DNA of 64,000 nucleotides from Dictyostelium discoideum (GCA_000004695.1 CM000153.2:3360001-3424000), one strand, 5' to 3'; shown: positions 28,026 through 54,005, counted from the first letter of the stretch. The notes: generated by a model not told the origin, from the sequence alone. Numbers and translations: made by a program.

Positions 28026-28740
28026 ATGAATTCAATTGAAAATAATAATAAAATTTGGTTAATCACCGGAACATCAAGTGGTATAGGTTTAGAATTTGTA
28101 AAGAAATTATTTGAAATATGGTTATAAATTATCAGCATTAACTAGTAAACCAGAAGAGATTATAAAAGAGATTAAATTTGAAAAAGATAATTTATTAATT
28201 GTTAAAACTGATATTACAAACAATGAATTAGTAAAGAATGCAGTGACTAATAAACAATTTGGTAGAATTGATGTATTGGTTAATAATGCTGGTTATGGTT
28301 TAGTTGGTGCAATTGAAGAATTATCAGATTCAGAGGTTAGAAAGATATACGATGTAAATGTATTTGGCGTTTTAAATTTATTAAGAAATTCAACACCATA
28401 TTTTAGAAAACAAAAATCAGGTTTAATAATTAACATTTCCTCTCAAATGGGTTGGGATAGTATGCGAAATTATTCAGCCTACAGTTCAACTAAACATGCA
28501 GTTAATGCAATTACATTATCAGCACAAAAAGAGTTTAAACCATTTGGTGTAAATGTAATTTTGATATTTTTAATAAATATGCTTTCACCCGTTTCGCTCA
28601 AGAGTTTGATCTCTATTTTGGTCTTGCTTTATTCACTGGTTTAACTGCTTTAGATACTCACAATGTAAACCAGATTTCATTAGAGTTCCAATTGATCTAT
28701 TTTTAGATATTTTAAATATCTCCGTTAGACTTTTAAGAGC
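28026..28740 (+). pseudogene. Chimeric pseudogene: short-chain dehydrogenase/reductase (SDR) 5' two-thirds with a +1 frameshift near 28110, fused at about 28580 to a copy of the last about 55 codons of the TMBIM gene (53814..54983)
   Basis: TGTSSGIGLEFVKKLFE Rossmann motif then a frame break. NNAGYG...S...YSSTKHAV SDR catalytic pattern. From about 28580 the sequence is the inverted duplicate of 53817-53990 with an internal deletion. Confidence 0.6.
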
Positions 28741-31700
28741 TGGAAGTTAGTAAACAAAAAAAAAAAAAAAAAAAAAATATAAAAAAAGATAAAAAAAAAA
28801 AAAAAAGAAAAAAAAAAAGAAATAAAAAATGTGGTATTAAAATTTGTAAATAAATAAATAAAGCTGTAATTAAATTTAATCAAATAAAAAATTTTATGGA
28901 AGAATTTTTTAGAAAACAAAAAAAAAAAAAAAAAAAAAAAAATTATTTGAAAATCTAGCAAACGATCGAACGTAAAAAATAATTGGATATTATTTTATGA
29001 AAATTAGAAATCTATTTTAAAAAGTTTAATTTAAATAATGTTTTGGATTGGTTTTATTAAAAAAATTATTTTTTATATGCAAAAGTTATTTTTTAATTTT
29101 TTTTTTTTTTTTTATCAAAATGATTATTTTAAAAAGTTTTGTTTTTTTTTTTTTCTTTTTTTAAAATTTAAAGAAATTATCATGTGATTATTTTAAAATC
29201 CAAACGAAATAAAAGAAATTTATTTTTTAAAAATATCTTTTTCACCAAAAAAAAAAAAAAAAAACCATCGTTTGTGTAAAAAAAAAAATACATTTCGATA
29301 AAATTCAAAATCAGAAAAAAAGTTACTTTTTTAACAAAAAATGACAGAAAAATATAAGGTAAACTTTTTTTATATTTTATTTTTATTTTATTTTTTAAAT
29401 TATAATTTCAATGTTGTAATTTTCCGACATCATTTTCTCAAATTAATTCAACAAATGGGTTTTTAATATCAGAAGGCAGAAGTTTAATTTCAATTGAACA
29501 TGGAGACTTGAATGGTGATGGTAATGATGATTTGATATATTCTATAAATTCAGAAGGACTATATGTATTTTATGGGCCATTGGCAAGTAATTTTGATTTT
29601 CAACATTAAATGGAGTAATGGTTTTTTAATTAATAATTTCAATCCATTTTCTGCTTATCTTTATGATATGAATAATGATGGGATTGGTGATATAATGATA
29701 AATAGGGGACATATAGCAATCGATATTATTTATGGTAGTAGAGGTCCTTTTACCTCACCATATATCCCAGTTTATGATGGTGTCAAAAGTACCAGTTTCA
29801 GCTTTTTAGGTTGCTCAATAGATACTAATACTCTTCCAAATGCTTTTGGAGATTTTAATAATGATGGACTTAATGATTTTGGTGTAATTTATTCTTTATT
29901 ATTTTTGATTATTCTTATTCTTTATTATTCTTTATTGTTATTATACTAATTTTTACATTTTATTAAAAAATTTTAGATTCTTACAAGACTGACTTCGGGT
30001 GACCAAATAGCTTTTTTGGTTTGGGGTAAAACAGAATATCCACCAACAACAACATTAAGTATAAATCTAAATCCATCGGATGGTTTGGTTATAACAGTTG
30101 TTGGCAACACCTATAACTGGGCTTTATCTCCTAGATTGGGGATATAAATAATGATGGATTTGCAGATTTTTTAATCAGTGGTAACACTGACCTCCCATTC
30201 ACCATTTTGTATGGTAATAATAAAAATTATGCTTCAAATCCAATTTATTTAAAAGATCAAGTTGGTGATTGTTCAATAATGTCAATTAATGGCTATGTTG
30301 AGGCTATTGATATTGGTGATTATAACTCTGATGGTATTCATGATATTGTAATTAATATTATATTAAATCAATTATTATTATTATTATTATTATTATTATT
30401 ATTATTATTATTATTATTATTATTATTATTATTATTATTATTAACTTTTAAATAATTCTATTCTATCAGACAGCATATATAATAGCAACAGGTTCATATT
30501 TAGATATTTATACACTATATGGTCAAACTTCAATTGGTTCAATTTCAATAATTGGTAAATTATTTCTACCAAATCCAGTGTCAAACACAATTTATAAATT
30601 ATTTGAAAATAATATTAATTCAGAAGTTGGACAATGCGCAATTAGAATTGTTACATTAACAATTGAAAATTCAGCAAATGAAGATCAATTTATTATTGAT
30701 CCTAGTTTCAATAGTTCAATATATTCAATAGCATTTAATAATAATACAAGAGTTAGAATTGAGTTAATATTATTTGGTGATGAGAGTAAATCAATTGCAA
30801 ATGATGTTTTACCAAAAATAACAGTTTCATTATCACCTCAACTATTTAATAGAACTGTATTAATGAAATATGGTAATCAAGTACAATCAATTAATGCCCA
30901 AATGCAAATTGTGACACAAAATGTTTAAATAGTGGTACTTGTAATCCACTCACTGGTTGCCAATGTATAAATGATCATTATGGTGATTTTTGTGAATTAA
31001 AAGATTGTACAGTTCCACAATGTTTAAATGGTGGTTCATATAATACAACAGTTGATGAATGTTCATGTCCTCAAGGTTATGAAGGTACGGATTGCAGTGG
31101 TATTAGTTGTTCAGCTTCATGTTTAAATGGTGGCTCATGTAATACTACGGTTGGTGAATGTTCATGTCCTCAAGGTTATGAAGGTATGGATTGCAGTGGT
31201 ATTAGTTGTCCAGTTTCATGTTTAAATGGTGGTTCATGTAATACTATGGTTGGTGACTGTTCATGTATAAATGGCTTTTATGGTGATGATTGTGATACAA
31301 AGGATTGTACAGTTCCACAATGTTTAAATGGTGGTTCATGTAATACAACAGTTGGCGAATGTTCATGCACTCAAGGTTATGAAGGTATAGATTGTAGTGG
31401 TATTAGTTGTTCAGTTTCATGTTTAAATGGTGGTTTATGTAATACTACAGTTGGTCAATGTCAATGTGTTGAAGATTATGAAGGCGATGGTTGTGGTTCT
31501 GAAAACAAAAAGAAAATAAATATTGGTGTTATTATTGGTCGAATTTTAGATGGTCTTGCACTAATTGCAATTATTGTTGTTGCCATTGTTTTAATTAAAA
31601 AGAAGAAGAATGGAAATTCAAAGAAAAATACAAATAACATTGAATTAAGACCTCAAAGTTCCACTGTTGATATTCAAATGGGTGGTAGAATTAAAAATCT

Positions 31701-52700: not shown

Positions 52701-54005
52701 TAAAGAGCAATATCGTCAAATCCATCATTATTTATATCACCAACAGCTACTGGATATTTGCTTGCAGCAGTATTTAAAAAAATAAAACCATTTGAACCGT
52801 TGATCTTTGATATGTCTGTTTGAAAATCAAAATTACTTGCTAATGGCCCATAAAATACATATATTCCTCCTGAATGTATAGAATATATCAAATCATCATT
52901 ACCATCACCGTTCAAGTCTCCATGTTGAATTGATATTAAACTTCTGGCTTCTGATATTAAAAACCCATTTGTTGAATTAATTTGAGAAAATGATGTTGGA
53001 AAAATTGAAATTACAAAATTGAAATTATAATTTAAAATATAAAATAATAATAGAATATAAAAAAAGTTTACCTTATGTTTTTCTGTCATTTTTTGTTTAA
53101 AAGGAAACTTTTTTTCTGATTTTAAATTTTATCGAAATGTATTAAGTGCATTTTTTTTTTTTTTTTTTTAAAAAAAATAAGGTCTGTTTTTTTATTTTTT
53201 ACAAAAACGACGGTTTTTTTTTATTTTTTACACAAACGACGGTTTTTTTTTTTTTTTGTGACAAAGATATTTTTAAAAAATAAATATCTTTTATTTTGGT
53301 TGAATTTTAAAATAATCACATGATAATTTCTTTAAATTTTAATTTTTTTTTAAAAAAAAAAAAAAAAAAACAAAACTTTTATTTAAATAATCATTTTAAT
53401 TTTAAAACAAAAAAAAAAAAAATTAGAAAATAACTTTTGTAAATAAAAAATAATCTTTTTAATAAAATCAATCCAAAACATTATTTAAATTAAACCAAGA
53501 TAAAAAATTTTTAAAATAGATTTCTAATTTTCATAAAATAATATCCAACAATTTTTGACATTCGATCGTTTGCCAGATTTTCAAATGATATTTTTTTTTT
53601 TTTTTTTTTTTTTTTTTTTTTTTTTTTTTTTTTTTTTTGATTGTTTTATAAAAAATTGGAAAATATCTTTTTCCATAAAATTTGTTATTTGATTAAATAT
53701 AATTACAACTTTATTTATTTATTTACAAATTTTAATACCATATTTTTTATTTCTTTTTTTTTTTTTTTTTTTTTTTTTTTTTTTTTTTGTTTTTTTTTTT
53801 TTTTTGTTTTTGTTTACTTATTGCTATCACTTCTAGCTCTTAAAAGTCTAACGAAAATATTTAAAATATCTAAAAAGAGATCAATTGAAACTCTAATGTA
53901 ATCTGGTTTACCTTCTTGAAAAGTTTTGACAGCATTGTGAGTATCTAAAGCAGTTAAACCAGTGAATAAAGCAAGACCAAAATAGAGATCAAACTCTTGA
54001 GCGAA
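49765..54005. repeat. Right arm (intact copy) of the inverted segmental duplication
   Basis: See left arm 28560..31885. Confidence 0.8.
49926..53089 (-). CDS. Type I membrane protein with N-terminal integrin-alpha-like FG-GAP repeats (about 7), about 9 tenascin-type EGF repeats, a TM helix and a short cytoplasmic tail. 4 exons: about 53089..52514, 52418..52023, 51910..51557, 51380..49926
   Basis: Repeated DxNxDGxxD Ca-binding loops (DLNGDGNDDLIYS, GDINNDGFDDIAL, DMNNDGIGDIMIN, GDFNNDGLNDFGV, GDINNDGFADFLL, GDYNSDGIHDIV). CxxGxxGxxC EGF modules (CLNGGSCNTTVGECSC.QGYEG.DC). TM segment IGVIIGPILGGLALIAIIVVAIVLIKKKK. Donors GTAGGT, GTAATT, GTAAGT. An (AAT)n microsatellite lies in intron 3. Confidence 0.75.

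Follow-up and report, generated by a model that had tools for sequence, protein, structure and literature searches.

A decayed inverted copy of an FG-GAP/EGF gene in a patchwork block within an SDR gene of Dictyostelium discoideum AX4

How did two inverted copies of the same gene-sized segment, one intact and one decayed, come to lie ~18 kb apart on chromosome 4 of Dictyostelium discoideum AX4? The two copies, a left arm (L) and a right arm (R) that share an FG-GAP/EGF gene, are found in a window of 64,000 nt, the whole stretch of DNA analyzed here, to which all coordinates refer and whose G+C content is 22% (A+T 78%). A first, sequence-only reading had described them as a recent inverted duplication enclosing a mosaic of gene fragments, in what looked like a rearrangement hotspot. 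We compared the window with GCA_054883475.1, an independent chromosome-scale assembly of an AX4-type genome whose annotated genes carry the prefix ACTFIT, and the alkB neighborhood with those of three sister isolates, ACTFIR and ACTFIW (both labelled D. discoideum) and ACTFIY (D. cf. discoideum). The duplication is real, and L is one piece of a patchwork of ~6.3 kb (28563–34795) situated inside a short-chain dehydrogenase (SDR) gene that is intact in all three sister isolates.

The two arms of the inverted repeat

An antiparallel match, returned both by a repeat finder and by self-BLAST of the window (E = 0), pairs L at 28579–31880 on the plus strand with R at 54019–49767 on the minus strand. 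The inverted repeat is thereby confirmed, and its measured ends lie within ~20 bp of those first proposed (28560–31885 and 49765–54005). The three longest inverted arms free of gaps measure 677, 622, and 524 nt and are 92–96% identical, and a global alignment of L and R contains nine collinear blocks, 93–96% identical. L spans 3.3 kb and R 4.25 kb, L being shorter by ~950 bp. GCA_054883475.1 contains both arms as well as everything beside L; over 27800–35700 (7.9 kb) its alignment to the window has 30 gap columns and not a single mismatch.

The content of the shared segment agrees with what had been read from the sequence: the last ~203 coding nucleotides of a Bax1-I/TMBIM gene, the intergenic spacer, the whole FG-GAP/EGF gene, and a flank of 159 bp past its stop codon. 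Thus, the copy spans non-coding DNA, both introns and spacer, and disregards gene boundaries, starting within the TMBIM coding sequence.

Gene model, protein matches, and Pfam domains together show R (49767–54019, minus strand) to consist of DDB_G0285585, its upstream spacer, and the 3' end of DDB_G0285587. The FG-GAP/EGF gene DDB_G0285585 occupies 53089–49926 on the minus strand, with exons at 53089–52514, 52418–52023, 51928–51557, and 51380–49926. The model that we built from the sequence has GT...AG introns and yields a product of 932 aa identical to DDB_G0285585, in which the domains FG-GAP_3, EGF_2, and EGF_TEN score above their cutoffs (61.0, 86.7, and 109.7 bits, respectively); the right copy is therefore intact, as first described. 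Its neighbor, the Bax1-I/TMBIM gene DDB_G0285587 (54983–53814, minus strand), was identified by an exact protein match and by the Pfam domain Bax1-I (PF01027; 70.6 bits against a cutoff of 34.1). As introns 2 and 3 and the spacer are still present in L, and as it stops within the TMBIM coding sequence, R is the original site; R also remains the working gene. The FG-GAP/EGF genes of the sister isolates likewise come after TMBIM, at the position of R.

L, in contrast, is a dead copy. Alignment to R resolves it into a frameshifted remnant of the TMBIM 3' end (~28579–28760), the spacer, and an FG-GAP/EGF pseudogene extending on the plus strand from an ATG at 29341 to a stop codon at 31713. The largest loss corresponds to R 52824–52309 (516 bp), which takes in the last 311 nt of exon 1, the whole of intron 1, and the first 110 nt of exon 2. 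It removes about two FG-GAP repeats together with the donor of intron 1 and falls between two similar FG-GAP repeat positions. Two further gaps correspond to R 50544–50344, an in-frame deletion of 201 bp of tandem EGF units, and to R 51533–51480, 54 bp of a triplet run. There are four frameshifts (at ~29420, 29612, 30138, and 30895), and the TMBIM tail is frameshifted as well. Of the decay that had been proposed for this arm, the loss of about two FG-GAP repeats and of the reading frame stands, while the loss of a splice donor is limited to that of intron 1 and is due to the deletion: introns 2 and 3 are present, and their donors are still GT.

When sites were polarized with two outgroup copies, 81 private derived sites were assigned to L, compared with 47 to R and 48 to a third paralog, P3, described below. 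The ratio of nonsynonymous to synonymous divergence is 0.5–0.7 in every pair, pairs of intact genes included, and hence does not set L apart; the usable evidence for its decay is the frameshifts and the longer L branch. As introns 2 and 3 are retained, L is a copy made at the DNA level and not a retrocopy.

A patchwork inside a dead SDR gene

All three sister isolates (3/3) have the gene order LRR gene, SDR gene, alkB, with an intact SDR gene of 279–286 aa and no insert between. The outer two genes were recognized in the window by exact protein matches, the LRR gene DDB_G0285563 at 25916–26767 on the minus strand and alkB at 35637–36818 on the plus strand, and between them the SDR gene is broken into two pieces. 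Both were aligned to the intact SDR gene of ACTFIR, 861 nt long (locus L002, 8875–9735). The first, SDR1 (28026–28562, plus strand), is a truncated pseudogene that contains nt 1–554 of the coding sequence with a +1 frameshift at 28110. The second, SDR2 (34796–35356, plus strand), consists of the proximal upstream region and nt 1–59 (34833–34891) joined to nt 396–861 (34892–35356); apart from lacking nt 60–395 internally, this second pseudogene bears a 1-nt deletion and two premature stop codons. Because nt 1–554 lie to the left of the block and nt 1–59 plus 396–861 to its right, ~0.6 kb of SDR (about −40 to +554) flanks the block on both sides as a direct duplication. The Kimura two-parameter distance (K2P) over the SDR1–SDR2 overlap is 0.066. 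The intact gene of the sister isolates matches the Pfam domain adh_short, and both AX4 pieces are truncated and frameshifted, so that no intact adh_short domain is left at this locus. AX4 thus has a dead SDR gene between DDB_G0285563 and alkB, where related isolates have an intact one.

The block itself juxtaposes at least seven segments in both orientations, with distinct nearest relatives on chromosomes 4, 5, and 6. It opens with a junction filler of ~16 AT-rich bp (28563–28578) that separates SDR nt 554 from the TMBIM-derived sequence and matches neither parent. L follows, and meets at 31880/31881 the first of three units with small HssA-like genes (hssl). This unit, hssl A (31881–32296, plus strand), lacks exon 1, contains a premature stop and a frameshift, and includes 3' flanking sequence; its closest relative is the chromosome 5 copy DDB_G0288841, to which it is 93% identical (locus L014, 7093–7501). 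Next comes fragment X (32297–32424), 128 bp with an open coding-like frame that ends in a poly-T run, to which neither the window nor any of the loci retrieved for comparison gave a match.

The second unit, hssl B (32425–33214, minus strand), is a copy of a dispersed unit of ~0.8 kb, 95.5% identical to a chromosome 6 copy (locus L013, 6437–5649). It carries an intact gene, DDB_G0285567 (32869–32571; one intron, 73 aa). The third, hssl C (33306–33774, plus strand), is the intact DDB_G0285569, with exon 1 at 33306–33318 and exon 2 extending to 33774 (72 aa). Both genes were identified by exact protein matches, and both are annotated as hypothetical proteins. Their scores against the Pfam family PF05710 "Coiled" (HssA/2C/7E), 18.5 and 20.2 bits, are below the gathering cutoff of 21.4; the match covers only the N-terminal 36 residues, and the C-terminus is rich in Cys and Pro. 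The three units differ from one another by 12–15%.

Further right lies a frameshifted 3' fragment of a START/F-box/WD40 gene (33941–34706, minus strand), which corresponds to residues ~896–1150, i.e., the last ~255 codons, and shows 75–84% amino acid identity to the protein P0086. Intact orthologs (P0086) were seen only in D. cf. discoideum and D. citrinum; the search with P0086 found orthologs in these and in more distant species. A word-indexed protein search returned no AX4 parent of the fragment; P0086 itself surfaced only by an exhaustive search. Since the protein search with P0086 found no ortholog for AX4, ACTFIR, or ACTFIW, the fragment may be the sole AX4 remnant of its gene. At the right end (34708–34795, plus strand), sequence comparison revealed a G18 homopolymer (34708–34725) and, after it, the last 74 bp of the hssl B-type unit for a second time (34722–34795). 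The G run is located exactly at a patchwork junction and comprises 18 residues in the window, 17 in the second assembly, and four in the two other copies of the motif. As for the other junctions, a 2-bp microhomology is present at the internal junction of SDR2 and the 16-bp filler at the first junction, the remainder being situated in A/T runs.

Hence, the SDR pieces, the three small HssA-like genes, and the WD40 fragment of the first reading all exist. Most of the block is dead: both SDR pieces, the FG-GAP/EGF copy and TMBIM tail of L, hssl A, and the WD40 piece are pseudogenes, and only hssl B and hssl C retain open frames. The arms do not, however, enclose a mosaic of ~18 kb. The duplicated pieces are confined to 28026–35356, beside L, whereas the segment from 35.6 to 49.8 kb is single-copy and collinear in the three isolates. 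This segment (35637–49766) includes alkB, a TrmO-like gene, a nucleoporin gene of the Nup84/Nup100 family, and others, in the same order and orientation as in the sister isolates.

The automatic annotation of the second assembly contains a gene model, ACTFIT_005806 (locus L006, 2410–6095), that runs across SDR1 and L and predicts an 829-aa chimera of SDR and FG-GAP/EGF. The model splices over the frameshifts, and where it is matched to the window one of the gaps measures no more than ~29 bp; because of this splicing, the chimera is most likely a prediction artifact. For users of the AX4 reference, this means that the left FG-GAP/EGF copy and the chimeric model represent a pseudogene.

Paralogs, age, and origin of the block

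The first reading implied a simple duplication with two copies, and this does not hold. Outside the window, ~77 kb to the left of its start, chromosome 4 of GCA_054883475.1 carries a third FG-GAP/EGF paralog, P3 (ACTFIT_005832, 912 aa; locus L010, 9371–14665), and two further copies, DDB_G0271042 and DDB_G0275659, are located on other chromosomes. P3 is contained in a ~5-kb duplicate of window 53774–48855, which is followed by a 340-bp piece of window 45887–45548. No protein at least 90% identical to ACTFIT_005832 was found for the AX4 reference annotation in the protein collection searched. In all three sister isolates (3/3), TMBIM is followed by two tandem FG-GAP/EGF genes (L005, 11808–18335; L012, 8001–15233; L011, 8001–14244), while AX4 has one there. 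The tandem copies of one isolate (K2P 0.02–0.04) are closer to each other than to copies of other isolates, which suggests concerted evolution. Thus, this family of surface proteins has undergone a lineage-specific expansion and dispersal in AX4.

The relationships among L, R, and P3 vary along the gene. In the 5' part of exon 1 and in exon 2 up to the EGF array, K2P is 0.036–0.039 between L and P3, 0.057–0.060 between L and R, and 0.059–0.062 between R and P3. In the 3' block, R and P3 are separated by 0.022, and L is at 0.053 from both. Overall, the site patterns are nearly star-like and mosaic, with a weak signal joining L and P3 (17 shared derived sites, against 11 and 7 for the alternatives). 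An attempt to assign a clean donor for L failed on these patterns. Because only L shares the TMBIM tail with R, it must derive from the R site, and the mosaic then points to gene conversion or an intermediate copy.

Nor are the duplications recent. Synonymous divergence (dS) is 0.082 between L and R and 0.062 between L and P3, while R differs from its ACTFIR ortholog (G2) by 0.071. Orthologous divergence of AX4 from ACTFIR and ACTFIW is 0.024–0.037 overall and 0.03–0.05 at third positions of alkB. Because the L–R value is as large as that between R and the sister-isolate ortholog, the duplications are about as old as the split from the sister isolates, contrary to the recent origin first proposed. 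All the duplicates are of similar age, judging by SDR1–SDR2 (K2P 0.066), L–R (0.057), hssl A (93% identity), and hssl B (95.5%).

The explanation that we favor, and regard as probable, is a lineage-specific complex duplicative insertion, made in one or a few steps as repair or replication switched templates. In an ancestor of AX4, after the split from the sister isolates, a break or a stalled fork would have occurred within the SDR gene, between DDB_G0285563 and alkB. Repair would have copied the TMBIM-3'/spacer/FG-GAP-EGF segment from 18–25 kb away in reverse orientation, generating L, and would have added further copied pieces, namely units of the dispersed HssA-like family, the START/F-box/WD40 3' end, and short fillers. 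Finally, synthesis would have re-entered SDR upstream of the point of departure, leaving ~0.6 kb of SDR on both sides of the insert. The process may have resembled microhomology-mediated break-induced replication (MMBIR) or fork stalling and template switching (FoSTeS), or synthesis-dependent repair with several donors; the copying was at the DNA level, neither by way of RNA nor by a transposon, and function was lost and none gained. Template switching fits best because several templated pieces lie in mixed orientation, one of them an inverted copy from 18–25 kb away, because fillers occur, because SDR, the site of departure and return, is duplicated, and because no transposon signature is seen.

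Several observations weigh against this account. Junction microhomology of 2–15 bp is the usual hallmark of MMBIR, but it cannot be judged in sequence with 78% A+T, and the first junction holds filler instead. In the look-ups made, the hssl units, fragment X, and the WD40 piece were traced to no donor in AX4 itself; they may have come from one locus or several, in a single event or stepwise in an already dead gene. With 12–15% divergence among them, hssl A, B, and C did not arise from each other here. Lastly, L is nearer to P3 than to R over the 5' two-thirds of the gene (K2P 0.037 versus 0.057; 17 versus 11 shared derived sites), and yet P3 lacks the TMBIM tail that L carries, a combination that needs gene conversion or an intermediate copy.

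A serious rival, although in our estimate an unlikely one, is stepwise accumulation: the SDR gene would first have been disrupted, e.g., by a partial tandem duplication or a single insertion, and unrelated insertions (L, each hssl unit, and the WD40 piece) and deletions would then have piled up in the dead gene, by then neutral ground, through ordinary end-joining. Such a history would account for the different nearest relatives of hssl A, B, and C on different chromosomes and for their divergence, for the extra internal deletion of SDR2 (nt 60–395), and for the later deletions between internal repeats in L. It accords less well with the narrow range of divergence of all duplicate pairs (~4–7%), with the lack of an intermediate state in any sister isolate (0/3), and with the flanking SDR duplication, which is most simply made together with the insertion.

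The suspected hotspot is borne out only in part: the P3 locus and the 3' end of a formin gene (59376–61810) show the same patchwork style. The latter, with downstream sequence (~0.7 kb in all), is directly duplicated at 59376–60105 and 61129–61810 (~91% identity), and the ~1 kb between the copies (60106–61128) is an AX4-specific insert with an open reading frame (ORF) of 130 aa lacking a Pfam hit (60115–60507) and, at ~61095–61128, a short stretch taken from coding sequence further upstream in the formin gene. The formin 3' end is single-copy in the sister isolates, and the architecture is that of the SDR locus. A broader form of the template-switching explanation, which we consider doubtful, unites the block, the P3 locus, and the formin insertion in one lineage-specific, multi-step episode, similar to chromoanasynthesis, that used donors on several chromosomes and dispersed FG-GAP/EGF to five AX4 sites, compared with two tandem copies in the sister isolates. 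If it were true, the window would preserve a record of MMBIR-type repair in an amoebozoan that is natural and can be dated. In a weaker variant of this reading, transcription from the SDR promoter would now yield a chimeric SDR/FG-GAP-EGF RNA, as the automatic model ACTFIT_005806 predicts.

The capture and movement of the pieces by a mobile element, whether a fragment-carrying DNA transposon, a Helitron-like element, or retroposition, is very unlikely. The hssl unit is indeed a dispersed repeat of ~0.8 kb, one of whose ends, sharply defined beside a poly(A) run, occurs twice in the block (33214 and 34795), and elements seem to occur nearby, as a putative retroelement ORF fragment adjoins a tRNA-like sequence at 6.2–7.1 kb. 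However, poly(A/T) runs are common in the intergenic DNA of this genome, so that a boundary at one of them means little, and L keeps both introns and intergenic DNA. The block has neither terminal inverted repeats (score 14, compared with a shuffle mean of 15.6) nor a short target-site duplication. A tRNA search found none near it, and the ORF list for 31700–35650, from which the hssl and WD40 translations alone went through a Pfam scan, showed no evident transposase, reverse transcriptase, or integrase-like ORF. On these grounds, transposon carriage was rejected. L as a processed pseudogene was rejected as well, given its introns, the absence of poly(A) at its end (31880), and a flanking duplication of ~0.6 kb rather than a short one.

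Inverted duplications are also known as by-products of inversions in the staggered-break model of Drosophila inversion breakpoints, and the present locus resembles such cases in that two inverted copies ~18 kb apart bracket a gene block. In contrast to them, the bracketed block is not inverted relative to the three outgroups: 34892–46480 and the outer flanks (19300–28562 and 53620–63057) agree in order and orientation with ACTFIR, ACTFIW, and ACTFIY, and the independent assembly concurs. An inversion was therefore rejected, and we regard both it and its variant, in which the arms are now causing the 18-kb segment to invert, as barely credible. An assembly artifact, i.e., a mis-joined or collapsed repeat, can be dismissed, as nothing was found in its favor, the arms differ by ~5% and by several large indels, and GCA_054883475.1 reproduces both arms and the whole block, without a mismatch over 7.9 kb.

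Known parallels and other features of the window

Taken as a whole, the locus is a well-resolved but ordinary complex segmental duplication yielding pseudogenes, and not a new kind of biological system. Mammalian segmental duplications are defined by a length of at least 1 kb and an identity of at least 90%, and L and R, as two copies in one genome, lie within both limits. Like intrachromosomal segmental duplications with pseudogenized copies, this is a DNA-level copy of 3.3–4.3 kb, 93–96% identical, that includes introns, intergenic DNA, and a truncated neighbor, with one copy intact and the other decayed. Unlike the mammalian ones, it is small, belongs to a compact protist genome with 78% A+T, has no high-copy repeats at its ends, and lies within a multi-fragment patchwork.

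Complex rearrangements attributed to FoSTeS/MMBIR include, e.g., the duplication-triplication/inverted-duplication (DUP-TRP/INV-DUP) structures of human genomic disorders. The templated segments in mixed orientation, the nearby inverted segment, the duplicated departure point, and the short junction fillers of the AX4 block are all similar to these. The differences are its fixation in a natural lineage, its age (~5% divergence), the apparent location of some donors on other chromosomes, junctions at which microhomology is not demonstrable, and a course of possibly more than one step. For genome evolution, the locus offers a fully resolved, outgroup-polarized case in which many fragments were inserted by duplication into a compact protist genome very rich in A+T.

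In the same species, strains Ax3 and Ax4 carry a large inverted duplication of chromosome 2, and duplications of at least 15 kb are known from laboratory stocks (PMC2643946). For D. discoideum breakpoints lacking complex repeats or tRNA genes, Bloomfield et al. left the mechanism open (PMC2643946). The chromosome 4 case resembles the chromosome 2 one in being an inverted segmental duplication. Whereas the duplications of laboratory stocks are recent and extend over tens to hundreds of kilobases, it measures 3–6 kb, is ~5% diverged, and is present in two AX4-type assemblies; because of this divergence, it is far too old for a laboratory origin. A literature search for six gene identifiers of the locus found no paper mentioning those genes, and none on the new assemblies was found.

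Three other features of the window were recorded. At 6165–7473, a tRNA-like sequence (6227–6310) stands beside an ORF (6450–7094) that lacks a Pfam hit and was read from its sequence as the tail of a retroelement ORF2, and 7195–7473 matches a chromosome 6 locus (L013, 9531–9810) at 98.9%; the region is probably the remnant of a tRNA-targeted retroelement. Two convergent carboxylesterase-like genes (13704–15482, plus strand, and 17390–15645, minus strand) form an older inverted duplicate at 13669–17428, with ~67% DNA identity. Finally, long triplet runs of the AAT/CAA type, which either encode poly-Asn or poly-Gln or belong to introns, are present in many unrelated genes, at 18.9, 37.2, 46.4, 47.4, 49.5, 51.4, 56.8, and 59.8 kb; whenever the window is compared with itself, they give rise to spurious matches by the hundred, both direct and inverted.

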